Assembly (NCBI GenBank): GCA_049322915.1
Contig: JBMOPW010000002.1
Span: 1-64,000, forward strand
DNA from: Candidatus Zhuqueibacterota bacterium
Lineage (GTDB): Bacteria > Zhuqueibacterota > Zhuqueibacteria > Thermofontimicrobiales > Thermofontimicrobiaceae
DNA: 64,000 nucleotides
Direction of reading: 5' to 3'
Shown: positions 32,117-61,561 of the stretch, in pieces
Layout of the letters: each line of letters begins with the position of its first letter
Position numbering within the stretch: the stretch's first letter is position 1
Position numbers and translations under genes: made by a program
The notes under the pieces: generated by a model
What the model saw: the letters and a program-made list of their open reading frames with translations, nothing else
Told to the model about the DNA's origin: nothing
The model's database searches: none

Positions 32117-32170
32117 AACACCGATTGCTGCGCAGTGGTCTGGAACGCTTTCAAAAACGAGGACTTCATT

Positions 32171-38807: not shown

Positions 38808-38836
38808 TTGACAAAGACAAAATAAATTTATAGAAT
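38808..38836 (+). promoter_or_regulatory. Sigma70-type promoter for the Panacea operon
   Basis: TTGACA-N17-TAGAAT ending 9 bp before the ATG (near-leaderless). Confidence 0.6.
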
Positions 38837-38845
38837 AATATTGTT

Positions 38846-39818: not shown

Positions 39819-39837
39819 CTATGATTTAAAAAAAAAT

Positions 39838-42800
39838 TCACTTATTAGCTTCTTTAAAAGAATTCTCCACTACCTCAATTTCCTCTGGTGTTAAACCATA
39901 AAGCTCATAAACCATTTGGTCAATTTCTTTGTCTGTTCTATCAATTTCAGCTTTTAATTCAATAGCTTTTTGCTTTTGTTCTTTGAAATAGTCCATCCAC
40001 TGTGATTCTTCTGATAACTTTAATTTGATACCTGCATTAGAAAAATATTTCAATAAATCAGGAAAATCTATATCACACCAATTTGAGATAATAATATTGT
40101 ATTTTCCAAAAATAAATGAAGTAATATTCTTTTGTAACTCATATAATATTAGAAAATTAGAAATATTAATATTAATTTTGTTAAGCATTGCTTTATATAT
40201 ATCGATTTTATTTTTATCATTAACATTTATTTCAATAATTGGCAAATCACCAATTTTTGTAGTGCTTAATTGGTTATATTGACCATTCGATATATGTTTT
40301 TGAATAAATGAACTATTTAATAATGCATTAGTAAATTTTGTGAAATCAACTTTATTACTGAATTGCTCAATAGAAGGAATTTTGTCACTTTTAAGGTAAA
40401 TAAAGTTTTGACCGCCAGAACCACCGCCTGAAGAATAATGACTTGTAGAAGAGAAAGTGAATTTATTCATATTTTTAGTGTTCACAATTATTTTTGTAGA
40501 ATCAAAGGGAACATCTGCTCTTTCATAAAGTGGCAACCACCAAAATTTTCTTTTCATTATTTTTTGAACTGCACCTGCTGAGCTATATTTAGCCTTTATA
40601 TCATCGATTGAAAAATTCTCAAATTCTTCTAATGTAATTACTTTGCCTTCAGGAATAGTTGTAGAACGGTTTAGCAAAACACCTGAAAACTGAGTTAAAT
40701 AATTTTTAATTTGACCTTCTAATTCATTAGAACATATATAGATAACAAAATATTCACTTTCAGTTACAATCCATTTATTAAGATTTTCAGTTTTAATAAA
40801 TGGTTTAATATATTTGGCTTCTTTGCTGTTCAATACAACCCAATTACCACTAATGTTTAATTGAATGTTATCTTGTTTATATTTTATATCAACGTTATTT
40901 TGTAAAATGAAAATTCCACGGCCTAAATATTCTTTAGAAATTAATTTATTTTCAACATGTTTATTTGTAACTTTATCTGCACCAGTAACCAATCCTTGAG
41001 AAATATAAAAATATTTTGAAAGTGGACATATTGTTTCATTGAAGTCAACAGAAGCTTGGTAAAAATTCCAAGGTTTATAATTTTCATTATCAAATTTTGA
41101 AGTTGAATAGGAAATAGCTAAACTATCGTCAAATAATTGAGTAGCAACTATGTTATTATCACGAAGGGATTTAAATTTAAAATAGTATGGATTATTGATT
41201 ACAGCTTTCAATTGAGTTAAAATTAAACTTGTTGTTCCAACATCTTTGAACACCTTAAGATCATTAAAATCTACAATTGAAATTATTTTTGAATCATTAA
41301 TAATTGATGCTCGAACTTTATTTGCCCAGTCGGCTGAAACAAATTCACGTGGAATAATCAAACTTTGAATTCCATTGTTCTTTAAAAGTTCAATTCCATG
41401 CTTTATAAAGAAATAGTATGTATTAGACCTACGCCTATAGAATTCTAACCACTTGGGGATTTTTTTTAGAGAATCGAAAATATCAGCGTTCCCTTTCTCT
41501 CCAACATAAGGTGGATTCCCAATAACCACATGAAAACCGCCTTTGGCAAATATTTCGGGAAATTCTTTTTCCCAATTGAATGCTTTTTCTCCTGCAATTT
41601 CTGGATCGTCAATCAATGAATTCCCACACTTGATGTTGTTATTCAGCATGGAAAGTTTTCTTCCTATTTTGGCAGTTCTCAACCACAATGATAATTTTGC
41701 AATTTCCACACTTTCTTCGTTTATGTCCACACCAAAAAGATTGTTTTCCAATATCTGCTTATCTGTGTCGTAAAGTCCTAAAGTTTGCTGAGTCAATTCG
41801 TTTATCAACATGTCATTGATTTTGTGTTCTTCAATTAAAAAAACCAATGCTTGATTCAAAAATGCACCACTTCCACAGGCAGGGTCCAGTATTTTCAATG
41901 TGAGCAGCCATTCCTTGTACTGGTTAAGTTTCTGGAAAAGCTGTTCTCCTTTTTTGGAAATCTTTCCATCTGCTTTTCTATGGGAATCATCAATTGTAAT
42001 TTCAGCAATATCCAGTTCCTGTTTTTTCTCCTTGCATAACGCGCCAATGGTGTTTTCAACAATGTATTGAGTGATATATTTGGGTGTGTAGTATATTCCT
42101 TCTTTCTTCCTTTTCGTCTTCTTTTTATCGACTGGTTTTCCTTCAAGTTCAGATGTGATTTCTTCAATCTCATTTAAGGAATGTTCGAAAATGTGTCCTA
42201 AAATATTTACATCAATTTCAGTGCTGAAATCATACGTCGAAAGTTTAATGCTGTCCTTTTCCAGAATATCATCTTCAATGATCACGCTGTTCAGGATTTC
42301 ATCTTTTGCGAAAAGTCCACCATTGTATTCTGGAAGCTCATAAGTATTATATTTATGTCCTTTGTCCAGGTGGTCGAAAAATAGCTTGAGACGGGCATAT
42401 AAAGGCTGATATGCCTCTAAATCTTTTAATTGGTGCCAATGGTCAATGATTCGGGAAATTGCATTGGGTGGGACCAGTCCCCTGTCTTCTGCAAAGAAAA
42501 TAAATAAAAGTCTGTCCAAAAGCTTTTGAGATTTTTTGAACAATAAAAGCTTGTCGTATTGCGGATTGTTTTTTACAAGATTGTTGAAGATTCTATGTTT
42601 AAATGTTGAATAGTCTTTATAAAATTTATCTGATATATTTTCTTCGTGAAATTTGGTTTCCTGTTTTAGCTTTGAAGGAACATCATTAAAAATGCTGTCT
42701 TTACTCAGGATAAGATATAATTTATTGAAATCAGTTTTGTTCAAGTTGAACAAATCGAACTCCTCAAACTCTGTTGCATTTTCAATGTAGAATCGGAGCA

Positions 42801-43212
42801 GCCGAAAATTTGAGGTGATGACATATTTACAATCGGGCTGATTGTTTTTATAGTTGAATGCCTGGTGTTTAATGGTTTCCAGATTAATTGTTTTGGTGGA
42901 TTTCAGTTCGATCACACCAATGGCTGAACCATCTTTTAAAATGGCTCCATCTGCTTTTTTTGAATCAGTGAAATTTTGAAATTCAGTGGTGAGATTAAAG
43001 TTATCATCTGGATTGATGGTATATCCAAGAACCTGTACAAAAATTTCTCTCAGGAATCCCTCCTGATAATTTTCTTCTTTCAGTTGTCTAATGTTCTGGA
43101 TACGCGCTTTATTTCCATAGAACTTTTGAAATATTTGGAAGGCTGTATTTACTTTGGTTTCATTGAGAGATTGAAGATATTTTTCAATGACTGATTTCTG
43201 AAAGATTTCCAT
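39838..43212 (-). CDS. Type IIG restriction-modification enzyme (fused endonuclease and N6-adenine methyltransferase)
   Basis: KADGAI...VIELK nuclease; GIYYTP; ILDPACGSGAFL; VIGNPPYV; C-terminal IDQMVYELYGLTPEEI. Confidence 0.92.
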   Translation of the reverse strand: MEIFQKSVIEKYLQSLNETKVNTAFQIFQKFYGNKARIQNIRQLKEENYQEGFLREIFVQVLGYTINPDDNFNLTTEFQNFTDSKKADGAILKDGSAIGVIELKSTKTINLETIKHQAFNYKNNQPDCKYVITSNFRLLRFYIENATEFEEFDLFNLNKTDFNKLYLILSKDSIFNDVPSKLKQETKFHEENISDKFYKDYSTFKHRIFNNLVKNNPQYDKLLLFKKSQKLLDRLLFIFFAEDRGLVPPNAISRIIDHWHQLKDLEAYQPLYARLKLFFDHLDKGHKYNTYELPEYNGGLFAKDEILNSVIIEDDILEKDSIKLSTYDFSTEIDVNILGHIFEHSLNEIEEITSELEGKPVDKKKTKRKKEGIYYTPKYITQYIVENTIGALCKEKKQELDIAEITIDDSHRKADGKISKKGEQLFQKLNQYKEWLLTLKILDPACGSGAFLNQALVFLIEEHKINDMLINELTQQTLGLYDTDKQILENNLFGVDINEESVEIAKLSLWLRTAKIGRKLSMLNNNIKCGNSLIDDPEIAGEKAFNWEKEFPEIFAKGGFHVVIGNPPYVGEKGNADIFDSLKKIPKWLEFYRRRSNTYYFFIKHGIELLKNNGIQSLIIPREFVSADWANKVRASIINDSKIISIVDFNDLKVFKDVGTTSLILTQLKAVINNPYYFKFKSLRDNNIVATQLFDDSLAISYSTSKFDNENYKPWNFYQASVDFNETICPLSKYFYISQGLVTGADKVTNKHVENKLISKEYLGRGIFILQNNVDIKYKQDNIQLNISGNWVVLNSKEAKYIKPFIKTENLNKWIVTESEYFVIYICSNELEGQIKNYLTQFSGVLLNRSTTIPEGKVITLEEFENFSIDDIKAKYSSAGAVQKIMKRKFWWLPLYERADVPFDSTKIIVNTKNMNKFTFSSTSHYSSGGGSGGQNFIYLKSDKIPSIEQFSNKVDFTKFTNALLNSSFIQKHISNGQYNQLSTTKIGDLPIIEINVNDKNKIDIYKAMLNKININISNFLILYELQKNITSFIFGKYNIIISNWCDIDFPDLLKYFSNAGIKLKLSEESQWMDYFKEQKQKAIELKAEIDRTDKEIDQMVYELYGLTPEEIEVVENSFKEANK

Positions 43213-43269
43213 TAAGTGACCTTTGATAAAATTATTGAGCATTGAAAAATGAAGTATAGTAGTTGGGAA

Positions 43270-43377
43270 TTAACCCTACTACGTCATATAGCAAGTTTTG
43301 CACAATATATTGTATGTTATGATGTCAAAAAATACGATATATTGTGTTGATAATTCTAAGTGACGTTGTAGGGTTAA
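43270..43377. mobile_element. TTAA-bounded ~100 bp MITE inside the islet
   Basis: TTAACCCTACTACGTCA...TGACGTTGTAGGGTTAA; 11 mismatches in 108 bp versus 58591-58698. Confidence 0.85.
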
Positions 43378-43634
43378 TCGATCATTAAAATCTGGATACT
43401 ATTGTCAATGTATTATAATAAATTTTCATTTAAATTCAATAGAAAAATTAAAGATGACGAAAATTTCTAAAAACTAAATGAGAACTATTTTGAAAAAAAC
43501 AAAAAAATTACTTGCGTGTAAGGTTTTTGTGTATTATATTAAACCTTACATATATGTAAAGTTTGATGGATAGAGTAAACCATTTGAAAAACATAAAATT
43601 CATAAAAAGTATTTCTATTAGAATCGGGAAAAAA

Positions 43635-44261
43635 ATGGAAAATAAAATTAAGGCAATAAATTTCTATCATACTGAGCTTAATGCACATTATAATTCAAGT
43701 ATAGGAAAGTCAATTTCAATACTACTAAATAGTAAAAAAAGCAGATTGATAGGGCATAATATTAGTTATCGTGTTATCAATCATTGGGAAAAAATGGGAA
43801 TTCTTGATACAAAAAAAGAGACAGATAAAAAATGGCGGAGGTATTCTATTATTGATTTAGTTTGGATTCAAGTTACTATTATTTTAAGAACTTTTGGCTA
43901 TCCATTAGAAAAAATTTTGACAGCCAAAAGGAACTTAGAAATGAATGATTGGGAAAGTAAACCTACTCAATCATCATTTTTCGAAGAGGATAATATTAAA
44001 AATAAACCAGTTCAATTTCCATTGTTTGAAATGCATATTGGAATGGCTTTTTTTAAAGGGGAGGAAGTTTATTTATTGGTGTTTCCAGACGGGAATGCAG
44101 TATCTATTATGATCAAAGAGCCACTGTCGTACGATAAATTAAAAGAATTAGGCGATCATATTATCATCTCGATAAACAATATTCTAAAAAAGTTATTTCC
44201 AGAAAATAATATGAGCGCTATTTCACAGCAAGAACCTGAGCTATCCAGTGAAGAAATTTAA
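43635..44261 (+). CDS. MerR-like HTH protein, possibly C-terminally truncated
   Basis: ISYRVINHWEKMGIL...KWRRYSIIDLVW...LRTFGYPLEKI. Confidence 0.7.
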   Translation: MENKIKAINFYHTELNAHYNSSIGKSISILLNSKKSRLIGHNISYRVINHWEKMGILDTKKETDKKWRRYSIIDLVWIQVTIILRTFGYPLEKILTAKRNLEMNDWESKPTQSSFFEEDNIKNKPVQFPLFEMHIGMAFFKGEEVYLLVFPDGNAVSIMIKEPLSYDKLKELGDHIIISINNILKKLFPENNMSAISQQEPELSSEEI

Positions 44262-44457
44262 TGATAAAACGAAAGGGTTAGTAACAGTGAAATTATAAAA
44301 TAGACGGTAAAACTGAATATTTAAAAATCAGAAAGATAAGAAAAATGAAATACTGATAGGCTAAATTAGGCGTTTAATTCTGACATTGAAATTGAAAAAC
44401 GAAACTGAATAATTTAAAACTTACACTAAATATTGATAACTAAATTTAAGGATTAAC

Positions 44458-44649
44458 ATGATGATTAAAAAACAATTCAATGCAGAACCATTGCATCGGC
44501 TGAGGTTCTCAGTGGTGCAATTCTTAGGACTATTACGCTATGCTGTCTATAAACGAATGCAGGAAAATCCTGGAGTCAAAAGGGAAAAAATATTCACATT
44601 CAGAAATAAAGATGTTGAGAGACTTGCTTTATACTTTGGCAGAAATTGA
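44458..44649 (+). CDS. Small hypothetical protein upstream of the recombinase
   Basis: 63-aa ORF with AAGGGA RBS, ending 29 bp before the recombinase start. Confidence 0.35.
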   Translation: MMIKKQFNAEPLHRLRFSVVQFLGLLRYAVYKRMQENPGVKREKIFTFRNKDVERLALYFGRN

Positions 44650-44678
44650 GATTCAAAATAATAAGGATAACTTAGAAA

Positions 44679-46238
44679 ATGGTAAGAAAAGCGATTATTT
44701 ACGTACGCGTCTCAACTGATGAGCAGCGAGAAAACGGCTTTAGTTTGCAGGAACAGGAAAACAGGTTGAGGAAGTATTGCCAGAAAGAAAACATTGAGAT
44801 TGTTGCTATATATAGAGAAGACTGCTCTGCTAAAAATTTCAATCGGCCTGAATATAGAAAAATGGAATCGGAACTAAAAAGTAATAAATTAAAAGCTGAT
44901 TTATTTTTATGTGTAAGAATGGACAGGTTTTCGAGAAATGCCTTTGAGTCTCTTAAAAAGATAATGGAACTAAAGAAATTTGGTGTAGAATTTAAACCGT
45001 TAGAAATGGATTATGATTTATCAGTTCCAGAAAACTTAATTCCATTTTTTATAAATTTAGTGATGCCTCAAGTTGACAATGAGAGACGAGGCATTAATAC
45101 AAAAAGGGGAATGAGACAGGCAATGCGGGAAGGCAGGTGGATTGCACAGGCACCAAAGGGATACAAACTTGAAAGGATTGATGAAAAATCTTATTTAGTT
45201 CAAGATGAAAATGCAAGATTTGTTATTGAGGCATTTACTGAATTTTCAAAAGGTATTTACAGTGTGAATGAGCTAAGATTAATGTTAAATGAAAAGGGAT
45301 TTAGTTGTAGCAAAACTCAATTTCACGAACTATTAAGAAATCCTGTTTACATAGGTAAGATAAGGATAAAAGCTTGGAAAGATGAGGAAGAAGAAATAGT
45401 TAATGGCGCGCATGAGGGAATTATTCTTGAAGATGTTTTTTACAAAGTCCAATCCATTCTTGAGGGCCGAAGACCAAGAAAGAAACCCAAATCTAAATAC
45501 GTGGATGAATTTCCTTTGAGAGGCCATTTGCAATGTTCTAAATGTGGCAGGAAACTTACAGGTAGTCCTTCTCGAAGCAAGACAGGTGCAAGACACTTCT
45601 ATTATCATTGCCGAAACGACTGTAAGGAAAGATTCAGGGCAGATGAAGCGAATGCCGAGTTTTTGAGATATATAAAATCATTCAAGATTCGGCCAGAAAT
45701 ATTGTCTCTGTATTTCAAGATTCTGGAAGATGTGTTTGACAGGGATGAAATGAGCAAAGATAAAGAAATTCAAAAGCTGAAAAATCAAATGAAATCATTT
45801 GAAGATAAAATTATTACTGTTGAGGATAAATTCATTAATAACGATATTTATAAACAGGATTATAACACGATAAAACATAGGTATGAGGAAAATATCAGGG
45901 AGCTAAAAATTAAAATTTCTGAGTTAGAGATGCAGGATTCTAACTACATGAAATACGTTGAATATTCGTTTTCCCTGCTTGGTGATTTGGAAGGATATTA
46001 CAAAAAGGCTGATGTTGAGGTGAAAGATAAAATAGTGAGTTCGATTTTTCCAGAAAAATTGATCTATGAAGAAAAAAAATATCGAACTCCAAAAGTCAAT
46101 GAAGTGCTGTCATTGTTGACTAAAAATATCAATGAGTTAGGAGAAATAAAAAACAAAAAAGCTGTCAAAAATGACAGCTTCTCCGCTTTGGCATCCCCAA
46201 GGGGAGTCGAACCCCTGTTACAGGATCGAAAATCCTGA
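44679..46238 (+). CDS. Large serine recombinase (integrase)
   Basis: YVRVSTDEQ (catalytic Ser), DRFSRN, recombinase domain (APKGY, LRNPVYIG, HEGII), Zn ribbon C..CG...YYHC...C, coiled coil; 3' end overlaps tRNA-Glu antisense. Confidence 0.95.
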   Translation: MVRKAIIYVRVSTDEQRENGFSLQEQENRLRKYCQKENIEIVAIYREDCSAKNFNRPEYRKMESELKSNKLKADLFLCVRMDRFSRNAFESLKKIMELKKFGVEFKPLEMDYDLSVPENLIPFFINLVMPQVDNERRGINTKRGMRQAMREGRWIAQAPKGYKLERIDEKSYLVQDENARFVIEAFTEFSKGIYSVNELRLMLNEKGFSCSKTQFHELLRNPVYIGKIRIKAWKDEEEEIVNGAHEGIILEDVFYKVQSILEGRRPRKKPKSKYVDEFPLRGHLQCSKCGRKLTGSPSRSKTGARHFYYHCRNDCKERFRADEANAEFLRYIKSFKIRPEILSLYFKILEDVFDRDEMSKDKEIQKLKNQMKSFEDKIITVEDKFINNDIYKQDYNTIKHRYEENIRELKIKISELEMQDSNYMKYVEYSFSLLGDLEGYYKKADVEVKDKIVSSIFPEKLIYEEKKYRTPKVNEVLSLLTKNINELGEIKNKKAVKNDSFSALASPRGVEPLLQDRKS

Positions 46239-46263
46239 GTCCTGACCACTAGACGATGGGGAC
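46189..46263 (-). tRNA. tRNA-Glu (TTC)
   Basis: GTCCCCATCGTCTAGTGGTCAGGACTCAGGATTTTCGATCCTGTAACAGGGGTTCGACTCCCCTTGGGGATGCCA cloverleaf with encoded CCA. Confidence 0.97.
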
Positions 46264-46286
46264 ATATTTTCAGCGTATTCAGAATG

Positions 46287-46365
46287 TGGGGGAGAGCGAC
46301 GGGAGTCGAACCCGCGACCCCCAGGGCCACAACCTGGTGCTCTAACCATCTGAGCTACGCCCTCC
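46287..46365 (-). tRNA. tRNA-His (GTG)
   Basis: GGAGGGCGTAGCTCAGATGGTTAGAGCACCAGGTTGTGGCCCTGG...GGTTCGACTCC; G-1:C73 pair. Confidence 0.95.
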
Positions 46366-46610
46366 GAATATTTTGGAGCGAAAATATAATATAATTTTTT
46401 TTAAAATGCAAGTAAAAAAATCATGATTGTTGAGCTTTGATTCCACACAACCAGCCTCTTGTTCGCGGTTGAGTTTCGTAATTGTCCGCAGCATTTTCTG
46501 AAGGCTTCATTTCAAGCAAATTAAACTTGATTTTGCAATCCATATTCATTAAATTTGGCCTCTTCGTTTCAGCTATGTTGCTTTATTTAGGAGCAAGGCC
46601 GTAAAGTTGT

Positions 46611-50549: not shown

Positions 50550-51266
50550 ATGAAAAAGGAAGTTTTTACTGAACGTGAGATACTGGACCACGCATCGATC
50601 CCGGCCGAGTTATTCCAGCAATTGGTCAAGAAAAATATTATCAAACCGCTGGGGACAACAAACGAAAATCTGCTTGTTTTCAGTTCTGAAGTGCTGATGC
50701 AGTTGAAGGAGATCAGCCTATTTCATTCCATGGGATATTCGATGGATGAAATTGAAAAGATACACAAAAAGGTGGGATTGCCTTCCACGAAAAAAACAAA
50801 AGGCGATTCGCCTAAAAAAATTCGTTATCTCACCGTGGGCGATCTGGCCAATCATGTGGACATCAATCCGCGCACCATCAAGTACTGGGAAGAGCGCGGA
50901 ATAATCGAGCCTGACACTCGTTCCGATGGCGGATTTCGACTTTACTCAGAGCACTGGATTTACCTGTGCAATCTCATCAAAGACCTGCAACTCTTCGGCT
51001 ACACTCTGGAGGATATCAAAGAGATTTCGGTTCTATTCCGGGATTTTTTGGCGATAGAAAATTCCAGTAGCACGTTCACACCGGAGGAGGTGCAGGCAAA
51101 GCTCACGGTCATGAAAGACAAGATTAAACTTTTTTATGCTAAAATGAATGATTTCAAAGAGGGCATTCAACGCTGGGAGGAGCTGTTGAAGAAGAAAGAA
51201 AAAGAGATTCGTCAAATGGAAAGCAAATTAAAGCAGACGAATAAACCTGATGAAAGTAAGGAGTAA
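50550..51266 (+). CDS. MerR-family regulator with two HTH modules
   Basis: LTVGDLA...INPRTIKYWEERGII.P..RSDGGFRLY; similar degenerate N-terminal module (MGYSMDEI versus FGYTLEDI). Confidence 0.85.
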   Translation: MKKEVFTEREILDHASIPAELFQQLVKKNIIKPLGTTNENLLVFSSEVLMQLKEISLFHSMGYSMDEIEKIHKKVGLPSTKKTKGDSPKKIRYLTVGDLANHVDINPRTIKYWEERGIIEPDTRSDGGFRLYSEHWIYLCNLIKDLQLFGYTLEDIKEISVLFRDFLAIENSSSTFTPEEVQAKLTVMKDKIKLFYAKMNDFKEGIQRWEELLKKKEKEIRQMESKLKQTNKPDESKE

Positions 51267-51270
51267 CAAC

Positions 51271-52815
51271 ATGAAGCCAATCCCAACAAAAAAAATGATA
51301 TTCATTGAGCCCAAATCGCCCAACTTGCACATTTTCTCGGTGTTCGTCATTCCCCGGTTGGGCACGTTGATTCTGGGCACTATTATGAAGCAGAAGGGGT
51401 GGGACGTGGAAGTTATCGTCGAAGAGAATGAAGAGATTGATTTCAACAGGATCGCCTCTGCGGATATTGTGGGCATTTCCACAATCACCTCCACAGCGCC
51501 CCGGGCTTACACCATCGCGGATCAGGTGCGGAAAATGGGCATCACCGTGATAATGGGCGGCCCTCATGTCACGTTCTTGCCGGATGAAGCCCTGGAGCAT
51601 GCGGATTTTGTCATTCGCAGCGAAGGTGAAAATGCGCTGCCGGCGTTTATTGAAGCCTGGGAAAATGGCAGGAATTATTCGACCATTCCCAATTTATCGT
51701 ATCTGCGCGATGGGAAGGTCATTCACAATCCCATCGAAAAACTCAATGACAATTTGGACAAGATTCCATACCCTGATTTTTCGCTCATTCGCACCGGCAT
51801 TCGAAAAACTTTCGGCTACCAGATCGTGCCCGTTCAAACATCGCGGGGCTGTCCGTTCGATTGCGAGTTCTGCTCCGTGACCGGTATGTTTGGCAGGAAA
51901 ATTCGCTATCGATCCACTGAAAATATCATCGAGGAACTTCGGCAGTACGATAACCCGAAAAACGTGATCTTTTTCTACGACGATAATTTCACGGCAAACC
52001 GACGACGGACGAAAGAATTACTGCATGCGATGATCGCTGAAAAATTCAGGTTCAATTGGTCCACTCAGGTGCGCGCCGATGTGGCCAAAGACCCGGAAAT
52101 CATCCAACTGATGCACAAGGCCGGCTGCACCACTGTTTTCATCGGATTCGAATCGGTTGACCCGGCCAGTCTGAAGGAGATGAAAAAAGAGCAATCCGTG
52201 GGCGAGATTAAAGCGGCGATTCAGGCATTTTATAAAAACAAGATTCACGTGCACGGCATGTTCGTATTCGGATTTGAAAGCGACACGCCATCAAAGATGA
52301 GAGAGACCATCGGTTTCGTGAATAAAAGCCATATCGGCACTGTTCAATTTCTCATTCTCACACCGCTGCCCGGTTCAGTCACGTTTCGGAAATTGAAAGA
52401 CCAGGGGCGAATAAAATTCTATGATTGGGGTTTATACGACGCCCATCATGCAGTGTTCGAGCCAAAACAAATGACCATTGATGAACTGCAAAAAGCCCAG
52501 ATTCGCGGACATCAGTCGTTCTATTCGCTGCGGCAGCTATTCAAACGAGCGATTCATTTTGAATGGAATGAATTGATCATTGGATTGTACGCGCGACGGT
52601 TGAACCGAAACTGGAAAAAGAAGAACCGAATCTGGCTCAAAGTGCTGAACCTGCTCCGGCCGAGTCATGATTTTAAAATTAATATCGACTTCCGGCAGGC
52701 TGTTCGATTACCGAGCAGGGTTCAGCAATTGACGAAAAGGAGTGCGCGACAGTTCAGTCCGAGGGAGGATTTGAATCCCCTGGGTCGCCAAAACGGGCTG
52801 TCCCTGGAGCAATAA
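51271..52815 (+). CDS. B12-binding radical SAM protein
   Basis: GGPHVT..PDEAL; QTSRGCPFDCEFC; FYDDNF; IGFES; LTPLPGS. Confidence 0.92.
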   Translation: MKPIPTKKMIFIEPKSPNLHIFSVFVIPRLGTLILGTIMKQKGWDVEVIVEENEEIDFNRIASADIVGISTITSTAPRAYTIADQVRKMGITVIMGGPHVTFLPDEALEHADFVIRSEGENALPAFIEAWENGRNYSTIPNLSYLRDGKVIHNPIEKLNDNLDKIPYPDFSLIRTGIRKTFGYQIVPVQTSRGCPFDCEFCSVTGMFGRKIRYRSTENIIEELRQYDNPKNVIFFYDDNFTANRRRTKELLHAMIAEKFRFNWSTQVRADVAKDPEIIQLMHKAGCTTVFIGFESVDPASLKEMKKEQSVGEIKAAIQAFYKNKIHVHGMFVFGFESDTPSKMRETIGFVNKSHIGTVQFLILTPLPGSVTFRKLKDQGRIKFYDWGLYDAHHAVFEPKQMTIDELQKAQIRGHQSFYSLRQLFKRAIHFEWNELIIGLYARRLNRNWKKKNRIWLKVLNLLRPSHDFKINIDFRQAVRLPSRVQQLTKRSARQFSPREDLNPLGRQNGLSLEQ

Positions 52816-52891: not shown

Positions 52892-53692
52892 TCAATCTTC
52901 GGTGTAATTTTTTCGGTAGTAGGTCCGAATGATCTTTCTTGCCACGGTGACATACAGGGGCAGGGGAATGAGCTTCACCAGGCGATACAATACCTTCATT
53001 GGGAAAGGATAGATGAGCAATTTTTTCCGATCCGCCACTGCAGCAATCATTATCCGGGCGGCCTTTTCAGCAGGCATCACCCATAGCGGTTTCATATTCT
53101 TGCTGATAATGGGCGTTTCCACGTAGCCCGGGTGAATCATGGTGAATTGAATCATGGGCAATTCCGCAGCCAGGCTTTCGATGAAATAGTGCAGGCCGAT
53201 CTTGGTGAGGCTGTAAATACCGCGGGTCGGCAGGCCTCGCATACTTGCAGCGGAACCAATGGCGATCACCGTCCCTCTCCCTTGCGGCACCATCGCCTCC
53301 AGGCAGGCGCGCGTGGTGTAAATGGCGCCTTTGAGATTGGTGTCGATGGTTGCCTCCACATCTTCCCAATTCCATTTCTCGAAAGACGAATTAGAACCAA
53401 TGCCGCTGTTCACCCACACAGCATCGATGGAGCCGGCGACCGAGTGAAATTCCTGAATCGCTGCGTACACCTGCTCCCGCACCTGCACATCGCAGCGTTT
53501 CACCCAGAAGGTGCTGCCGCTTGATTTGAGCGAGTTCGCCAGTTCCAGCATGGGCTCCTCGCGACGGCTCAGCAGACAAAAACGAATCGTGAACGGCGCC
53601 AGGGCTTCCACCACTGCTTTGCCCAGGCCGGAGGAAGCGCCGGTGACAACGACGGATTTCCCGGTCCAGTATGTGGCTATTTTTTTAGTCAT
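52892..53692 (-). CDS. Short-chain dehydrogenase/reductase
   Basis: TGASSGLG, NSG, YSLTK, HPGYVET. Confidence 0.92.
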   Translation of the reverse strand: MTKKIATYWTGKSVVVTGASSGLGKAVVEALAPFTIRFCLLSRREEPMLELANSLKSSGSTFWVKRCDVQVREQVYAAIQEFHSVAGSIDAVWVNSGIGSNSSFEKWNWEDVEATIDTNLKGAIYTTRACLEAMVPQGRGTVIAIGSAASMRGLPTRGIYSLTKIGLHYFIESLAAELPMIQFTMIHPGYVETPIISKNMKPLWVMPAEKAARIMIAAVADRKKLLIYPFPMKVLYRLVKLIPLPLYVTVARKIIRTYYRKNYTED

Positions 53693-53789
53693 CAATCAAC
53701 TTCTCCGTTATAAAAAATTGATCGTTCGGGTGGATTTTCAGAAAATGAAGCAGACGTCCTGATCGGTTCGGAGCATGACGCGCCGATGG

Positions 53790-54581
53790 TCAATCGCAAA
53801 TTATCGTGCCCTGAATATGCTCTCCCAGAATGGTTCTGGCAATGACCCCGGCGTCGGATCTGCCGGACAAAATGATGGCGGTTGTCAATGAGCTTTCTGT
53901 TACCAGTTGGATCATTTGCCCGACTTTGGATTTCATGCCGCCAGTGACATCCGCGCCGGCAGAGCCGCCCAGATGTGCGATGATCTGAGTATAACTTTTA
54001 TGATCGATCCGCGGAATCACCTGGCCGGCGCTATCCAGAACTCCCGGCACATCGCTGATGAGGACGATGCGCCGGAACGACATGTACTCATTCAACTGCG
54101 CAATCTGATCTTCGGTGGAAGCGATGGTGAATCCCTGACTTTCGTCCACGATGATGTCGCCGTGGATCAATGGTATCTGGTCGGCGTCCAGCAGCAGCCG
54201 AATTATTCGGGTATCGATGAAGTTCAATTTGCCGGCTCGCGCTGTGGCGATTGCCGATGGCTGCACCGTGATCGGGAATAATCCCTCGTCCCTGAAAATT
54301 TGCAGTAACCTCAGATTCATGCGAATCATGCTCTCGCGGATCTCATAAAACGCCGCCCAGCGCCACTGCGGGTGTCGACCCTTTTTCGCGCTGTATTTCT
54401 CCGCGGCCATGTGCCCGTAACTGCCGGCGCCGTGGCTGAGAATCAGACTGATTTGCTGCGACTGCCACGCGCTGAGAATTTCGCGCGCTACCGTGCGAAC
54501 ATTTTCTTCATTCAGGCTCTCCGGTTTGTTTTTATCCGTGATAAAAGATCCACCGATTTTAACAATGACTTTTGTTTTCAA
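53790..54581 (-). CDS. Isopentenyl phosphate kinase (amino-acid-kinase family)
   Basis: KIGGSFITDK, HGAGSYGH (IPK-type His), P.IHGD, DVTGGM.SK; TTG start overlapping the upstream gene. Confidence 0.85.
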   Translation of the reverse strand: MKTKVIVKIGGSFITDKNKPESLNEENVRTVAREILSAWQSQQISLILSHGAGSYGHMAAEKYSAKKGRHPQWRWAAFYEIRESMIRMNLRLLQIFRDEGLFPITVQPSAIATARAGKLNFIDTRIIRLLLDADQIPLIHGDIIVDESQGFTIASTEDQIAQLNEYMSFRRIVLISDVPGVLDSAGQVIPRIDHKSYTQIIAHLGGSAGADVTGGMKSKVGQMIQLVTESSLTTAIILSGRSDAGVIARTILGEHIQGTIICD

Positions 54582-54960
54582 TGGTAATTACATCTCCTGA
54601 AATTTTAATGAAATCGCCGGTCTGCATGCGTTCAATCGGAACCGAATCGATGGTGGGAATTTCACTGATGATGGCGCCCACGGCGACGATGGTTTCGCAC
54701 TCGGAAAGAATCATTGCTGCCGGTGCGACGTTCATTTTTTTCAAAGAATAAAGGATGTACGAACCCACTGTGCTGCCTTTGGCAGTGGGGAAGATGAGCA
54801 CTTTGCCTGCCAGTGTTTGCCCGAACAGTGGATGTCCCGGCTCTTTGACAATGCCTGTTTTCGGATCCACAGCGCCAAAGAAGCTGATGGGCTGATCCGA
54901 TTTCAGCGCCTCGCCTTCGGCAGTGCCGTGATAAATGATCCGTCCGGTTAGTTTTTCCAT
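54559..54960 (-). CDS. Aconitase X swivel subunit (DUF126; phosphomevalonate dehydratase small subunit-like)
   Basis: ISFFGAVDPKTG, HPL.GQ...GKVL.FP..KGSTVGSY. Confidence 0.9.
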   Translation of the reverse strand: MEKLTGRIIYHGTAEGEALKSDQPISFFGAVDPKTGIVKEPGHPLFGQTLAGKVLIFPTAKGSTVGSYILYSLKKMNVAPAAMILSECETIVAVGAIISEIPTIDSVPIERMQTGDFIKISGDVITIENKSHC

Positions 54961-56174
54961 TGTCCCTCCACAGCGGATTCGATGCACTGCTCAGTTGTCC
55001 CAAAATGGGTGATGATTCCCTGATGCGACGGCAGATAGGTTGCGGCTTTGGCTGAATTCGTCCCGATGAATCGAATGCCCATTTCGGCCAGCGGCGCAAC
55101 GACCATGCAGGTATCGGCGAGAATCCGGCCGCCAGCCTGTTCGATTTGCGAGGCCAGTCCCTGACTTCGCGCCTGTCCCCGCACGATGGAGGAAGTAGCG
55201 ATCCACAGCGGCGTTCTCAATGTGCGTTCTGCCACGCGCCGGGCAATACTGGCGATTTCATCCAGCGATGCATGGGGGCAGCCCAGCGTCACCAGATCGA
55301 GTTCGTTGCCTTCGCGTGACAGAGCGTTACGCGCCTCATCGAGCGAATGAATTGAGATGTCCTGCGCAGTTTCGCGGATGATTCGTTCGCCGTATGATCG
55401 CGCCTCCGGCGTTTCATTTTCGATGTGAAACAGAGCAACAGCGCCGCTGGCGGCCATTGCCGCGCCGAGCGACTTCAGGCAGGTGGTCTGTTCCGAGTCG
55501 TCGGCTGGAAGAGGCAGCCCCTGAAAGAACGGGATGCCGCCGCCGATTTTTTTCCCTATGATGTACCCCAACAGGCCAAAATCAGCGCTCGTTTTTACAG
55601 GACAATGAATCTGCACGCGGGCTGTGGCCAGCCTGTTTTTATGAAGATGAAGGCCGAAGCGCGGTGTGCGACCGCAAAATGCCGATGCCAGCGCTGAGGG
55701 TCCGCCTTCGCGGTTGGTTCGCGCGCCCAGAACCGAATTGGCATAACTCACAGCGGACGATTCGCTCCAGGCAATGTGTTCGCCCGTCTTTGGCCCCAAT
55801 CCGATATGATAGGGAGTGCATGTGAGCGTCGCGCGAATGCCAACCCGCTTGAGCTGATGGATTATCTCCATCTGCCTGGCCGCGAACTCCGCCGGGAAAC
55901 CCAACTGCTGCCACAGCATCCGGTCGATTCCGGCCGGATTCATGAACGCAGGCACATGGGCATAGACGCCCATATCCGCCCAGTCCCTGAGAAATTCGAG
56001 ACCGGGTTCGCCGATATTTTTGTAACTGATGCCGGAAATTTGCGCGGACTGAATTGGCGTCATGTCCTCAGCGCCATAAATACGTCCCAGCGCGACCAAA
56101 ATTTCCATGGCGCGTTTTACACCTCGTCCGTGCCGGCCATCGAGAAGAGCATATTCTGTTTCAGTCAATTTCAT
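54948..56174 (-). CDS. Aconitase X catalytic subunit (DUF521; phosphomevalonate dehydratase large subunit-like)
   Basis: GISYKNIG, TCTPY, AWSESSAV.YANSVLGARTNREGG, LGCPH, DTCMVVAP. Confidence 0.92.
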   Translation of the reverse strand: MKLTETEYALLDGRHGRGVKRAMEILVALGRIYGAEDMTPIQSAQISGISYKNIGEPGLEFLRDWADMGVYAHVPAFMNPAGIDRMLWQQLGFPAEFAARQMEIIHQLKRVGIRATLTCTPYHIGLGPKTGEHIAWSESSAVSYANSVLGARTNREGGPSALASAFCGRTPRFGLHLHKNRLATARVQIHCPVKTSADFGLLGYIIGKKIGGGIPFFQGLPLPADDSEQTTCLKSLGAAMAASGAVALFHIENETPEARSYGERIIRETAQDISIHSLDEARNALSREGNELDLVTLGCPHASLDEIASIARRVAERTLRTPLWIATSSIVRGQARSQGLASQIEQAGGRILADTCMVVAPLAEMGIRFIGTNSAKAATYLPSHQGIITHFGTTEQCIESAVEGQWKN

Positions 56175-56312
56175 AATCATTCAGGGTTGTACCTGCCGCT
56201 GCTGCAAAGAGTCGGTTGAATTAGAACCGCGTCTCAGCAGGCGAATGGATTCATGCTGAATCAATCATTTTGTCTGCCAAAATGTGAAAGAAGCGAAACG
56301 CTCACTTGTGAT

Positions 56313-57155
56313 TCATCTTTTAAAAATTCCCAATTCCCGCTCCATGGCCAGGTTTTTATCCAGAGCAACCTGCGCCTGTTCGATCAACTGTTTATCAATC
56401 CCAAAAATGTCGGCAATGACGTCGTGGTAATTGCGCGCAATGTTGTGATTTTTTTTTGAAGTGAACGTCGTTTCCCGCATGAAGTTTTTATGGATATAAA
56501 TATAGCCATCTTTTTGAATTCTGGTCAGGCAAATGCCGTGCATGGAGGGTCTGGTGAATGAGGCCTGCCAGTGCCCTAAAAATTCATCCGGCGGACAAAT
56601 CCTGTCGGCAAAGTTGTAGCGCCAGGTCAGGTTTTCTTTATTGAACGTAAACAATTGGTATTTTTGAAGCGTCAGATTGAACTGCAATTCGACGCCGGCA
56701 TGGGGCGTCCGAAAGATGCGCGGTTTTGCCGGATCAATCTCCATGGGGACGTTCAACAGATATCCGGGATCGACGAGGTATTTTCGCTGATCCAGCGTGA
56801 CGATCATCGCGCAATGAATATTGTCGCCGGCTTTCATGTCTGCCATCACCGGATAGCAGGAGTAGCCGTGGAACAGCAGGACTGTCTCCAGAAAAAAAGT
56901 GAGCGAAAAGCATGTGCCGCCCAGAGAGAAATGGGCGTGATCGTCCATCACTTCAAGCGGCAGGCGTATCTTTTCATCGGATTCCCATGTCCGGCTCAGC
57001 TTAATAATTTTGCTGATATTTTCATAGGGCAGGGTGGAAAATTTTTCCAGAATCGCTTGCAGCGAGAGCATATCCGGCTTCGTCACATTCAATTTGAAAA
57101 AATCATTGAAATATCGAACGCTGTCGCCGTGATTTTCCGGGAGAAGATACACCAT
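56313..57155 (-). CDS. Arylamine N-acetyltransferase family protein
   Basis: LPYENISK, GGTCF (Cys), IHCA (His), LVDPG (Asp); start uncertain (57155 or 57212). Confidence 0.85.
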   Translation of the reverse strand: MVYLLPENHGDSVRYFNDFFKLNVTKPDMLSLQAILEKFSTLPYENISKIIKLSRTWESDEKIRLPLEVMDDHAHFSLGGTCFSLTFFLETVLLFHGYSCYPVMADMKAGDNIHCAMIVTLDQRKYLVDPGYLLNVPMEIDPAKPRIFRTPHAGVELQFNLTLQKYQLFTFNKENLTWRYNFADRICPPDEFLGHWQASFTRPSMHGICLTRIQKDGYIYIHKNFMRETTFTSKKNHNIARNYHDVIADIFGIDKQLIEQAQVALDKNLAMERELGIFKR

Positions 57156-57366
57156 ATTTCTTTTTCCGAATATTCGTTCCTTTGGTTGAATCGCTTTATT
57201 TGGCCGGGGCAAAGCCCTTGTTACATTTTGTTGTGGAGGTCGCCTTCATGTTCGGCTTTCTGAATAGACCAATGTCCGCAGGACTGCCTTTTAACAGGCA
57301 AAAAATCTGGCGTCACTTTGATCTGAAAAGCGCCAAACATAGTGCGCGAAGGCCGGATGGTTGTCT

Positions 57367-58419
57367 CTAATCGAGCACGAACAAATGAGCCGGATGATCT
57401 GTCACCACCTCTCCGATCACAGCCGCTGTTTCCACGCCGCGCTGTTTCAACAGGGAGACCAGCGCATCGACTTTGTCCTCTGCCACAGAAATGAGTAATC
57501 CGCCGGAGGTTTGAGCATCGAACAGAGCGGTGGAGAGCGCCCAGGAGATGGAGTCGCTCAACGTCACCTTGTCCTCGAGAAAGTAGCGATTGTTATTGGT
57601 ACCGCCGGGCACGTATCCTTCGTTGATGAGAGCCAGGGTACGCTCGAAAATCGGCGCATTGCAGGCCCAGATATTGATGCCAACCTGACTGCCGGCAGCC
57701 ATTTCGTAGGTATGTCCCAACAGACCAAATCCGGTGATGTCGGTGCAGGCGTTGACCCCAATTTCCTGCATCGCCTCGGCAGCATTTTTGTTGAGCGTCG
57801 CCATGACCGCATTAACCCGCTCACTCAACTCTCCCAGATCGAGGCCTGCTTTGATAGCCGTTGAAAGAATGCCGCTGCCCAATGGTTTGGTCAACACGAG
57901 CTTATCGCCCGGCCTGGCAGCAGCATTGGTGACCACCTTGTCGGGGTGAATGATGCCGGTCACCGCAAGCCCATATTTCAGCTCTTCGTCCATAATGGTG
58001 TGGCCGCCGGCAATGACCGCGCCGGCCTCGGCCACTTTATCCGCGCCACCTTTGAGAATTTCCACCAGAACGTCCAGCGAAAAATGCTTCTGATGAAAAC
58101 CAACAACGTTGAGCGCGGTCAGCGGTCGCCCGCCCATGGCGTAGACGTCGCTGAGGGAATTTGCCGCTGAAATCTGGCCGTAAGTATAGGGATCATCCAC
58201 AATAGGAGTGAAAAAATCCACCGTCAGAATGAGCGCCATATCATCGGAGATTTTGTAGACGCCGGCGTCATCCGCAGTGTTAATGCCCACAATCAGGTTC
58301 GGGTCAGTTGGCAATGGCAGTTGTTTTAATACTGAGCCTAACTCCGTCAGGCTTAATTTCGACGCTCAGCCAGCGCATTTCACAGTTTCAGTCAGTCTTT
58401 TTTTCATGGGTTCGGACAT
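57367..58419 (-). CDS. selD: Selenide, water dikinase; selenoprotein (UGA at codon 18)
   Basis: Upstream in-frame extension MSEPMKKRLTETVKCAG-U-ASKLSL joins DDAGVY, TVDFFTP, AANSLSDVYAMGG, GGHT, TDITGFGLLGH, DAQTSGGLL. Confidence 0.95.
58335..58353 (-). promoter_or_regulatory. SECIS-like hairpin in selD
   Basis: AGCCTGAC-GGA-GTTAGGCT starting 12 nt after the UGA. Confidence 0.7.
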
Positions 58420-59699: not shown

Positions 59700-60953
59700 A
59701 TGATTACAAGAGTCCAGGCCTTATTTTACAAAGGCTTTAAGTATCTCGATGTTGCATTAAATCCTTTTGTCATTCTGGTAGGGCCGAATGCCAGCGGCAA
59801 GAGCACATTTATTGATATTTTTAATTTTATTCGGGATACATTGATTGATGGACCAGAAGCAGCGGTACAAAAGCGAAGCTCGCAATTCATGGAATTGTTA
59901 TGGAACCAGATTGGTACCAGAATTGAATTTGCTATTGAAATTGCCATCCCTGCTCCGATGAGTGAAGTATTCCGGTCGGCGAGGTATGAGCTTTCAGTTG
60001 CACTCGACGATAGATTGGGGATTGTAATTGAAAACGAGTATTTATGGTTACTTAAAGAAGGAGCCGAACTTCTTGAACCTGGGAAAGATCATACCAGACA
60101 ATGCACGATATTTCCGTCTGAGCCTATTGCACCTGAATTTATCATCACTCAAAGAAAGAAAACACCTATCGGATGGAGAAAGATAATTTCTAAAAGCGCT
60201 CAGGGGAATGATTATTTTCGTTCGGAAACAACTGATTGGAATATCATTTATCGCTTTGGTCCCTATAAAGCATCATTGGCCAGGATACCTGAAGATGAAG
60301 CGCGGTTTCCAATATCATTATGGATTAAAAAAATATTAATGGAGAATATTCAATTCCTGCAGTTGAACAGTATCGCCATGCGTTGGCCTTGTCGGCCAGA
60401 TAGCCCTGTTGCATTTCAGATGGAAGGAAATAATCTACCAAAGGTAATTAAATATTTACGCGATGAGCATCCAAAGAATTTTGATCAATGGTTGAAACAT
60501 GTCAGATCTGCTCTGCCGGAAGTCGATCGAATCACGATTCAGGAACGTCCGGAGAATCGATCTTTATATCTTCAATTTGAATATCTGAATAAAAATTGGG
60601 TGCCTTCCTGGTTGCTATCCGATGGGACACTTCGTTTGCTGGCTCAAACTCTGATTGCATATCTTCCGGAAAAAGATCGTCTCTTTATGATTGAAGAACC
60701 AGAGAACGGGCTTCATCCTCTGGCGATTGAAAGCGTTTATCAATCACTATCTTCCTGTTATGATAATCAAATTATTCTCGCCACCCATTCACCTGGAATA
60801 ATTCGTTTAGCCGAACCACGAGATATCATCTGTTTCTCGAAAACCGAAAGTGGATTGATCGATATTTGCCCAGGCCTTGAGCATCCTCGACTTAAAAATT
60901 GGATGAAAGGTATTGATTTAGCAACTTTACATGCTGCAGGAGTGTTACAGTGA
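59700..60953 (+). CDS. ABC/AAA_21-type ATPase (MADS MAD3-like)
   Basis: GPNASGKST, LSDGTLR, MIEEPENGLHP, ATHSP. Confidence 0.85.
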   Translation: MITRVQALFYKGFKYLDVALNPFVILVGPNASGKSTFIDIFNFIRDTLIDGPEAAVQKRSSQFMELLWNQIGTRIEFAIEIAIPAPMSEVFRSARYELSVALDDRLGIVIENEYLWLLKEGAELLEPGKDHTRQCTIFPSEPIAPEFIITQRKKTPIGWRKIISKSAQGNDYFRSETTDWNIIYRFGPYKASLARIPEDEARFPISLWIKKILMENIQFLQLNSIAMRWPCRPDSPVAFQMEGNNLPKVIKYLRDEHPKNFDQWLKHVRSALPEVDRITIQERPENRSLYLQFEYLNKNWVPSWLLSDGTLRLLAQTLIAYLPEKDRLFMIEEPENGLHPLAIESVYQSLSSCYDNQIILATHSPGIIRLAEPRDIICFSKTESGLIDICPGLEHPRLKNWMKGIDLATLHAAGVLQ

Positions 60954-61561
60954 AAAAAGATTTAGTTGTATTAGCTCCGGACATCACCGTCAAAGTGACT
61001 CTTGATTGTCTGCTTAATCGAAATAGGGATTTTGAAATTCGCAAGATAAGCTGGGAAACATTTGTGCATCCCCTTCGGGATCCGGGTGTCTACAGCAACT
61101 CGGATTCATTTTTGAGAAGCTATATAAATGATTATCATTTTGCATTAATATTAATGGATAAAGAGGGCAGTGGGCAAGAAGCAAAGCCTTATGATTCATT
61201 GATCGAAGAAATGAAAAGAAAAATGGAGCGCAATGGTTGGAGCGATAGGGTAGGCGTTATTGTATTTGACCCGGAATTAGAAATATGGGCTTGGATAAAT
61301 TCACCCCATTTGGCGAGAGTTTTAGGTTGGCCGGACTATACGACATTGAAGAACACGCTCGTTGATAATGGGTTATGGGATCATCATCGGCCTAAGCCAG
61401 TTCGACCGAAGGAAGCATTTGAATTCGCGTTGAAAACGAAGAGAATCCCCCGCTCGTCTTCTATTTATCGGGAAATTGCTATAGCTGTTGATTTTAACAT
61501 GTGCCGGGAACCATCCTTCCAGGCTTTGAAAAACATGCTGAACCAGTGGTTTCCGAAATAA
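60950..61561 (+). CDS. ATPase partner protein (MADS MAD4-like, putative nuclease)
   Basis: GTGA overlap with the ATPase; DLVVLAPD, HP.RDPG, MDKEGSG, DPELEIWAW, KP.RPKEA, WFP terminus; family call from memory. Confidence 0.6.
   Translation: MKKDLVVLAPDITVKVTLDCLLNRNRDFEIRKISWETFVHPLRDPGVYSNSDSFLRSYINDYHFALILMDKEGSGQEAKPYDSLIEEMKRKMERNGWSDRVGVIVFDPELEIWAWINSPHLARVLGWPDYTTLKNTLVDNGLWDHHRPKPVRPKEAFEFALKTKRIPRSSSIYREIAIAVDFNMCREPSFQALKNMLNQWFPK

Follow-up and report, generated by a model that had tools for sequence, protein, structure and literature searches.

Does a bacterium carry the dehydratase and kinase of the archaeal-type mevalonate pathway, and if so, how much of the pathway's lower half do they supply? 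This question is raised by the first 64,000 nucleotides of contig JBMOPW010000002.1 (assembly GCA_049322915.1, Candidatus Zhuqueibacterota bacterium; hereafter the window), whose minus strand carries overlapping genes for the large and small subunits of an AcnX-family dehydratase and for a kinase with the signature of isopentenyl phosphate kinase (IPK). A first-pass annotation, made from the sequence alone, had read them as an archaeal-type modified mevalonate module in a bacterium. Our analysis agrees: of the three enzymes that are peculiar to the lower half of the archaeal-type pathway or required by it, we judge the module, at a probability of roughly 75%, to encode two, with the decarboxylase encoded outside the window.

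The identities of all three genes are secure, with E-values of 1e-29 to 1e-142 for the three family matches, far beyond chance. The large subunit matches Pfam PF04412 AcnX at 473.8 bits (cut-off 31.5), the small subunit reaches 115.3 bits with PF01989, the AcnX swivel domain (cut-off 27), and the kinase matches the amino-acid kinase family PF00696 at 102.5 bits. The kinase also passes the curated NCBIfam equivalog NF040647 IPPK_Arch (183.8 bits; cut-off 120), placing its earlier reading as an IPK on firm ground, and stays below the cut-offs of paralogous families (fosfomycin kinase FomA, next best, 66.8 against 550; ArgB, 47.6 against 151.3). Its best relatives among solved structures are six IPK sequences, led over the whole length by the archaeal enzyme of Methanocaldococcus jannaschii (3K4O, 122 bits), which aligns with the window kinase at the N-terminal lysine and along the glycine-rich H-G-x-G-x-x-G-H stretch; we take this lysine and the histidine of the stretch to be the catalytic Lys and His of IPK. 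The window kinase differs from archaeal IPK in its bacterial host, in the overlap of its gene with that of the dehydratase small subunit and in its divergence, being 49% identical even to the kinase of a KSB1 locus (L001). Compared with solved structures, the large subunit scores best against the Thermococcus AcnX type IIb (7cnr_A, 347.5 bits, versus 200.8–206 bits for the type I cis-3-hydroxyproline dehydratase of Agrobacterium, 7cnp), as does the small subunit (7cnr_B, 135.7 bits, versus 71.3 bits for the type I enzyme).

The active site tells the same type. In excerpts of two AcnX studies (PMC10040528; PMC8184944), type IIa enzymes are described as split and of the same activity as type I, type IIb as the archaeal mevalonate 5-phosphate dehydratase with a [4Fe-4S] cluster, and types IIc–f as bacterial with no function assigned. 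The window genes have the layout of type IIb, with separate large and small subunits on adjacent overlapping open reading frames (ORFs). For the Thermococcus kodakarensis enzyme, an excerpt of its structural study (Watanabe et al. 2021, PMC8184944) lists as mevalonate-5-phosphate contacts G48, V49, S50, N53, N79, E129, S130, S131, K361 and Y365 of the large subunit and S62 and T63 of the small subunit. Mapped by hand through the structure-search alignments, the phosphate contacts G48, V49, S50, N53 and N79 fall on window G50, I51, S52, N55 and N81; E129, S130 and S131 on E140, S141 and S142; K361 and Y365 on K378 and Y382; and S62, T63 and V64 of the small subunit on S72, T73 and V74. All named contacts are thus identical in the window except for the change of V49 to I51, a main-chain contact. 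Across an 84-row alignment, the mapped large-subunit positions are kept in 27 of 27 bacterial rows and in 54–57 of 57 archaeal rows, N55 excepted; this residue matches Thermococcus, and T or S takes its place in most of the archaea sampled. The S72-T73-V74 triad of the small subunit is invariant in all 32 aligned small subunits.

The cluster ligands follow suit. Type IIb is characterized by three cluster cysteines (sites A, 1 and B) and none at the type I site C, according to an excerpt of PMC10040528. The window large subunit has C121, C301 and C358, invariant in 84 of 84 aligned sequences, and no second cysteine two residues past C358, where the window reads M-V and the Agrobacterium enzyme W-C. 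Score, residues, tree position and gene context together support a type IIb enzyme, acting on mevalonate 5-phosphate, over a hydroxyproline-type one. Beside the characterized archaeal type IIb enzymes (Aeropyrum pernix; the T. kodakarensis structures 7CNR/7CNS), the window pair shares the two subunits, the three-cysteine pattern and every named contact, and its relatives have UbiD, UbiX, mevalonate kinase and IPK neighbours. It differs in having a bacterial host, in belonging to a bacterial-labelled clade apart from the 57 archaeal rows sampled, in N55, in a Phe at the counterpart of Leu27 and in being an enzyme known from sequence.

Architecture makes the three genes a unit. The frame of the large subunit continues to a further ATG at 56180, from which the ORF was listed (54948–56180, 410 aa); from the second ATG, at 56174, the 408-aa form is 100% identical to a protein-database entry (P0001). 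The longest ORF of the small subunit opens with GTG at 54987 (54559–54987, 142 aa), and alignment with seven homologues, together with a GGAGGG just upstream of ATG 54960, makes that ATG the probable start. This ATG overlaps the large-subunit stop (54948–54950) by 13 nt, an overlap of the same length as that between the large- and small-subunit genes at the KSB1 locus L001, and the TTG of the IPK gene at 54581 overlaps the small-subunit stop (54559–54561) by 23 nt. Judged by these overlaps, which bear out the gene arrangement originally proposed, the three minus-strand genes form a single module with coupled translation. No RNA element in or beside it came up in Rfam or tRNA scans. A promoter and terminator scan of 52.5–58.8 kb gave 4 promoter-like sites where 5.1 were expected and 10 terminator-like sites where 7.6 were expected, which is uninformative on the transcription unit; the consensus it used is also, we presume, not that of bacteria of the Fibrobacterota–Chlorobiota–Bacteroidota (FCB) group.

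From this gene content, we infer the following chemistry and the flux through it. The AcnX subunits would form a heterodimeric iron-sulfur dehydratase converting (R)-mevalonate 5-phosphate to trans-anhydromevalonate 5-phosphate, with the [4Fe-4S] cluster probably held by C121, C301 and C358, the substrate by E140, S141, S142, K378 and Y382, and its phosphate by G50, S52, N55 and N81. Isopentenyl phosphate would then come from a UbiD-family decarboxylase and its UbiX partner, presumably encoded elsewhere in the genome, and the window IPK would convert it to isopentenyl diphosphate.

Related loci place the module among mevalonate genes. A search with an alignment of 16 large subunits, taking one genome per species, found 581 relatives, of which we kept the best 80 loci; by record title, 21 of these are bacterial and 59 archaeal. 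The bacterial loci comprise 16 from Chloroflexota and one each labelled KSB1, ‘Cytophagia’ (which groups with KSB1), Planctomycetia, Elusimicrobiota and ‘Acidoferrum’. The first-pass annotation had called the route mostly archaeal with few bacterial cases; the first part stands, and ‘few’ may be an understatement, given 21 bacterial-labelled loci among the best 80 with at least five phylum-level labels. ORFs were called greedily, with a minimum length of 70 aa and with those overlapping by more than 90 nt discarded, so that locus counts are lower bounds, then clustered by BLASTP, and the clusters were named by NCBIfam on one representative each. On this basis, a UbiD-family decarboxylase occurs at 30 of 80 loci (7 bacterial, 23 archaeal), IPK at 24 (8 and 16), UbiX at 16 (1 and 15), mevalonate kinase at 16 (3 and 13), an MDD-family decarboxylase at 7 (2 and 5), HMG-CoA reductase at 4 (2 and 2) and IDI2 at 4 (1 and 3). 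In most cases the UbiD gene is the immediate upstream neighbour of the AcnX large subunit, as in 6 of the 16 Chloroflexota loci, and one close relative of these UbiD neighbours (P0154) bears the source name ‘anhydromevalonate phosphate decarboxylase’.

Two bacterial loci, those of Elusimicrobiota and Planctomycetia, carry the module within full mevalonate operons. The Elusimicrobiota locus (L016) runs IDI2, HMG-CoA reductase, mevalonate kinase, one unrelated gene, AcnX large, AcnX small and IPK; the Planctomycetia locus (L012) has a thiolase and an archaeal-type HMG-CoA synthase (476.8 bits), HMG-CoA reductase and mevalonate kinase, then AcnX large, AcnX small and IPK; and a Chloroflexia locus (L044) has UbiX, UbiD, AcnX large, AcnX small, IPK and an MDD-like gene. 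At the two KSB1-like loci, L001 and L002, the same three overlapping genes stand alone among unrelated neighbours.

The trees place the module among bacterial relatives. For the AcnX large subunit, a quick IQ-TREE search with SH-like approximate likelihood ratio (SH-aLRT) support covered 84 rows: the window, seven named matches and 76 loci, four having been left out for want of a called large-subunit ORF of at least 340 aa. In this tree, whose sampling is biased towards relatives of the bacterial query, the window falls within a clade of 10 KSB1-like rows (support 95), joined by Elusimicrobiota and Planctomycetia (99) and then by 14 Chloroflexota rows to give 26 in total (96). The other 58 rows are archaeal-labelled except for the ‘Acidoferrum’ locus, and the bacterial lineage of KSB1, Elusimicrobiota, Planctomycetia and Chloroflexota is not nested inside any sampled archaeal group. 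The IPK tree (25 rows) likewise recovers a clade of the window, L001, L002, L016 and L012 (100), with Chloroflexota as sister (81). The closest named proteins to the large subunit are from ‘candidate division KSB1 bacterium’, at 56–70% identity, with unnamed matches reaching 87%. Since the AcnX and IPK trees agree, the three genes appear to share their history as a module; that history is common to the Elusimicrobiota, Planctomycetia and Chloroflexota modules, which were therefore probably inherited or transferred among bacteria as a unit.

Table 1. Positions in the window of the module genes and of other features described in the text
Feature	Position	Strand	Remarks
AcnX large subunit (aconitase domains 1-2-3), putative phosphomevalonate dehydratase	54948–56174	-	PF04412; 408 aa from ATG 56174
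AcnX small subunit (swivel domain 4)	54559–54960	-	PF01989; probable ATG 54960, 133 aa
Isopentenyl phosphate kinase (IPK)	53790–54581	-	NF040647; TTG start, 263 aa
Arylamine N-acetyltransferase-fold protein	56313–57212	-	PF00797, E 2.7e-9; without NCBIfam family
Short-chain dehydrogenase	52892–53695	-	
SelA	24177–25610	+	
SelB	25607–27535	+	
SelD, extended	57367–58419	-	ATG 58419
Fluoride riboswitch	32057–32122	+	52 bits (gathering score 34)
Na+/H+ exchanger family gene	32135–33376		
Low-G+C stretch	about 38000–46400		G+C 0.29–0.33, against about 0.47 elsewhere
MmeI/Eco57I-like restriction-methylase fusion	39838–43242		
Large serine recombinase	44679–46238		
tRNA-Glu and tRNA-His	46189–46365		
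MerR-family regulator and B12-binding radical SAM enzyme	50550–52815	+	
MAD3 ATPase	59700–60953	+	448.8 bits (cut-off 420)
203-aa ORF	60950–61561	+	Without Pfam family

Several observations weigh against reading the module as part of an archaeal-type pathway. As the first-pass annotation had stated, the decarboxylase, UbiX and upper-pathway genes lie outside the window: tblastn and Pfam searches of the 64 kb and of 46 ORFs in it found no UbiD, UbiX, mevalonate kinase, HMG-CoA synthase, HMG-CoA reductase, IDI2 or MDD-family gene, and nine query proteins from related loci (two UbiD, UbiX, mevalonate kinase, HMG-CoA reductase, HMG-CoA synthase, IDI2, MDD and a thiolase) returned two matches alone, both at chance level (E 0.2–0.4). 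UbiD is found at 0 of 5 loci of the subclade (the window, L001, L002, L012 and L016), within at most 10 kb on each side. A search for a KSB1 decarboxylase with the UbiD of an Anaerolineae locus (L051) was uninformative, all 120 matches listed being at least 71% identical and Chloroflexota-like, none of them KSB1-named. Within the enzyme itself, the position of Thermococcus Leu27 of the small subunit is Phe in the window (bacterial rows: F 6, L 3, Y 1; archaeal rows: L 11, Y 11), and the small subunit scores 161.1 bits against NF003046, just below the cut-off of 163. A rooted tree of 56 rows, built on a subsample of 50 ingroup rows, gives weak support to the branch splitting the clade from the proteobacterial outgroups; it places these outgroups on long branches, with 1 to 2.9 changes per column, and does not resolve the ingroup's base. 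Finally, Table S9 of the KSB1 phylum paper (PMC11683472) lists the methylerythritol phosphate (MEP) pathway genes dxs, dxr and ispG and an MVD-family decarboxylase in the phylum, so that the module could be redundant, or its IPK could serve a phosphomevalonate-decarboxylase route.

This last point leads to the alternative that survives best, one we regard as unlikely but deserving of serious weight: the genome would contain no UbiD, and the IPK would work with an ATP-dependent MDD-family phosphomevalonate decarboxylase of the type of haloarchaea and Chloroflexota, or isoprenoids would come from the MEP pathway, leaving AcnX redundant, a relic or acting on another hydroxy-acid phosphate. The missing UbiD and UbiX, in the window and at the other four loci of the KSB1, Elusimicrobiota and Planctomycetia subclade, would fit this, as would the phylum's MEP genes and the gain, in the same Table S9, of an MVD-family decarboxylase with mevalonate kinase and HMG-CoA synthase at one KSB1 node. 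MDD-family genes also share clusters with AcnX in 7 loci, 2 bacterial and 5 archaeal, so two routes can coexist. However, every part of the AcnX active site is preserved, under a constraint equal to that in archaea, and the coupling of the AcnX genes to IPK, with gene order unchanged across five bacterial loci that bear at least three phylum labels, is hard to square with a relic. UbiD and UbiX orthogroups are likewise listed for the KSB1 phylum (PMC11683472), and absence from some 20 kb of flank says little of a whole genome.

The MDD-family genes are an observation in their own right. They lie beside AcnX, UbiD and IPK at two bacterial loci (L044, 12563–13549; L070, 12507–13472) and at the archaeal loci L003, L006, L010, L057 and L077, and their best match is diphosphomevalonate decarboxylase at 251.6 bits, with phosphomevalonate decarboxylase MvaD at 193.3 bits (cut-off 475). 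With an MDD-family gene inside an AcnX, UbiD and IPK cluster, two routes from mevalonate 5-phosphate to isopentenyl phosphate seemingly stand side by side at these 7 loci.

What the KSB1 lineage holds at the phylum level does not settle on one route. The main text of PMC11683472 makes no mention of mevalonate, and its Table S9 lists KSB1-phylum orthogroups for MVK, HMGS, HMGR, MVD, IDI, UbiD, UbiX and GGGPS, with gains and losses at named nodes; no link of the UbiD and UbiX orthogroups to the mevalonate pathway is stated there. The lineage therefore has the makings of both isoprenoid pathways, in a phylum-level listing that is not tied to this genome. A search with the Elusimicrobiota mevalonate kinase (L016) found a ‘mevalonate kinase [candidate division KSB1 bacterium]’ (P0291) at 48% identity, likewise not tied to this genome; its place, among a run of unnamed 314-aa proteins that rank directly beneath the Elusimicrobiota and Planctomycetota matches, mirrors the AcnX tree. 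We considered the unannotated ORFs beside IPK in L016 and L012 as a shared new decarboxylase and rejected them, the two being unrelated to each other: one is an Ap4A phosphorylase, and the other, which belongs to no family, probably overlaps IPK's real start.

A wider picture that joins these strands strikes us as doubtful, yet worth setting out. In it, the module would belong to a multi-phylum bacterial lineage (KSB1, Elusimicrobiota and Planctomycetia, with Chloroflexota as sister) in whose KSB1/Elusimicrobiota/Planctomycetia branch UbiD became uncoupled and may have been replaced by an unrecognized step from anhydromevalonate phosphate to isopentenyl phosphate, and the pathway could feed archaeal-type ether lipids in FCB bacteria that bear geranylgeranylglyceryl phosphate synthase (GGGPS). 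Homologues of this synthase (K17104) are listed for the KSB1 phylum (PMC11683472), and Coleman et al. found GGGPS and digeranylgeranylglyceryl phosphate synthase (DGGGPS) in all 12 FCB phyla surveyed. Separately, a CDP-alcohol phosphatidyltransferase gene lies directly upstream of the AcnX large subunit at the KSB1-like locus L002 (5405–6058, plus strand; AcnX from 6127), and its best NCBIfam match, a weak one, is to archaetidylinositol phosphate synthase (75.2 bits; cut-off 180), which gives no more than a hint of a connection to lipids.

A third possibility, that the AcnX pair is a hydroxyproline-type dehydratase and the adjoining kinase an unrelated enzyme of the amino-acid-kinase fold, is very improbable and close to refuted. 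In its favour, bacterial two-subunit AcnX proteins are described in an excerpt of PMC10040528 mostly as hydroxyproline dehydratases or as having no function assigned, and the hydroxyproline dehydratase equivalog NF051439 is the sole NCBIfam model matched by the large subunit; the scores, 287.3 bits for the large and 89.8 for the small subunit, are nevertheless far under its cut-off of 700, and the kinase passes the IPK equivalog. For comparison, we drew six proteobacterial outgroups from a tblastn search of a plasmid collection, which returned 164 records, all below 60% identity (28.2% to 36.9% among the 40 matches listed). Fused genes account for three, of which two adjoin a proline racemase family gene, or a 4-hydroxyproline epimerase and trans-3-hydroxyproline dehydratase; one is a split pair beside an ornithine cyclodeaminase family gene, and two have ambiguous context. 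Pfam and NCBIfam searches of the window ORFs found no proline racemase, epimerase or ornithine cyclodeaminase gene near the module, unlike the hydroxyproline-catabolism neighbours at L082, L083 and L086.

The substrate-defining residues separate the two types as well. The proline-ring binders of the Agrobacterium enzyme, given as Asp203 and Ile206 in an excerpt of PMC8184944, correspond to S49 and S52 in the window, which lacks the hydroxyproline-type residues; at the S49 position, the six proteobacterial homologues have D in four, C in one and a gap in one, and they have I or L at that of S52 and N at that of S142. The position of C301 is S or N in four hydroxyproline-type rows. The two kinds of AcnX are alike in their Pfam families (PF04412 and PF01989) and in E140, S141, K378, Y382 and two cysteines; they differ in sequence (30–39% identity), in their long separate branches, in other substrate-specific residues, in the placement of the third cluster ligand and in the hydroxyproline-catabolism neighbours. 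The prior suggestion that linkage to IPK favours a phosphomevalonate over a hydroxyproline dehydratase is thereby strengthened, and the phylogenetic check it had called for groups the window with AcnX from mevalonate clusters, with the hydroxyproline-context proteins outside the clade across a weakly supported separating branch.

Least credible of all is that assembly or binning misjoined archaeal DNA to a bacterial contig: the 54–56 kb bin does have the highest G+C of the window (0.557, with 0.509 and 0.497 in the adjacent bins), and mislabelled contigs exist in the collection, as an acidobacterium-labelled locus nests in Bathyarchaeia, but the module lies mid-run among same-strand bacterial-type genes with bacterial hallmarks on both sides (TonB receptor, type IX secretion tail, SelA, SelB, SelD and the MAD3 defence ATPase), the database entry for its protein lies on a single 166,606-base contig, and its nearest relatives in the AcnX and IPK trees are bacterial-labelled, not archaeal. 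The nested locus (L059, record titled Candidatus Acidoferrum sp.) holds a UbiD, AcnX large and AcnX small cluster inside Bathyarchaeia with support of 100, and its contig is either a mis-binned archaeal one or the product of a very recent transfer.

The genes elsewhere in the window are of a bacterial, FCB-like kind. They encode a TonB-dependent receptor that bears a carboxypeptidase-regulatory-like domain, a C25 peptidase that carries a type IX secretion sorting tail, and SelA, SelB, SelD and MAD3. With the KSB1 labels of the closest AcnX homologues, this fits the original assignment of the host as a bacterium. Within the FCB group, these labels make candidate division KSB1 (Zhuqueibacterota), or a near relative of it, the most likely host. 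On its own strand, the module has as neighbours an arylamine N-acetyltransferase-fold protein and a short-chain dehydrogenase (Table 1), neither of which recurs at the KSB1-like loci L001 and L002.

Several other features of the window are of interest in themselves. The SelD ORF was listed from 58314 without its N-terminus; reading the in-frame TGA at 58366–58368 as selenocysteine extends it to ATG 58419, and the extended protein has the usual cysteine-x-glycine-selenocysteine motif, so SelD is itself a selenoprotein. SelA and SelB are encoded in the same window, and a tRNA scan found no selenocysteine tRNA (tRNA-Sec) in the 64 kb. A low-G+C stretch, ending at tRNA-Glu and tRNA-His, carries a restriction-methylase fusion, SocA/Panacea antitoxin-like and MerR-like genes and a large serine recombinase, and looks like an integrated mobile element. 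The ATPase at 59700–60953 passes the NCBIfam MAD3 equivalog of the methylation-associated defence system, and a 203-aa ORF overlaps its end. A fluoride riboswitch stands directly upstream of the Na+/H+ exchanger family gene, and a MerR-family regulator that looks duplicated extends over the start of a B12-binding radical SAM enzyme similar in kind to BchE/PhpK/HpnJ, with no equivalog cut-off reached.

How new is the module? A 2024 report by Kanno and colleagues in Appl Environ Microbiol is said to describe the archaeal mevalonate pathway in a Chloroflexota bacterium, Candidatus Promineifilum breve. Like ours, that bacterium reportedly has genes for an AcnX-type dehydratase and an IPK, and the Chloroflexota AcnX and IPK are the sister of the window clade; they differ in phylum, the window being KSB1-like and of the FCB group, and in UbiD, which is upstream of AcnX in part of the Chloroflexota loci and at none of the window and its four nearest loci. 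Two reviews cite Kanno et al. 2024 for the Chloroflexota pathway, the one bacterial case cited. Elsewhere, excerpts of PMC10040528 and PMC11052028 call the trans-anhydromevalonate route unique or exclusive to archaea. In the literature available to us, a search found nothing on this pathway in KSB1 or Anaerolineae, the metagenome-assembled anhydromevalonate cases it returned being archaeal; a wider bacterial spread may already be in print. At the level of genes, there appears to be good support for extending to a KSB1-like lineage a route proven until now in only one bacterial phylum.

In aggregate, a conserved dehydratase–kinase module in a KSB1-like FCB bacterium would widen the bacterial distribution of the archaeal-type pathway, and it raises the question of where, or what, the decarboxylase is in the KSB1/Elusimicrobiota/Planctomycetia subclade. 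The ATP-saving archaeal-type pathway is being engineered into E. coli (PMC12547664), for which the module may offer mesophilic bacterial versions. It would also bring more bacterial taxa into the debate on where the mevalonate pathway originated and how it passed between domains.

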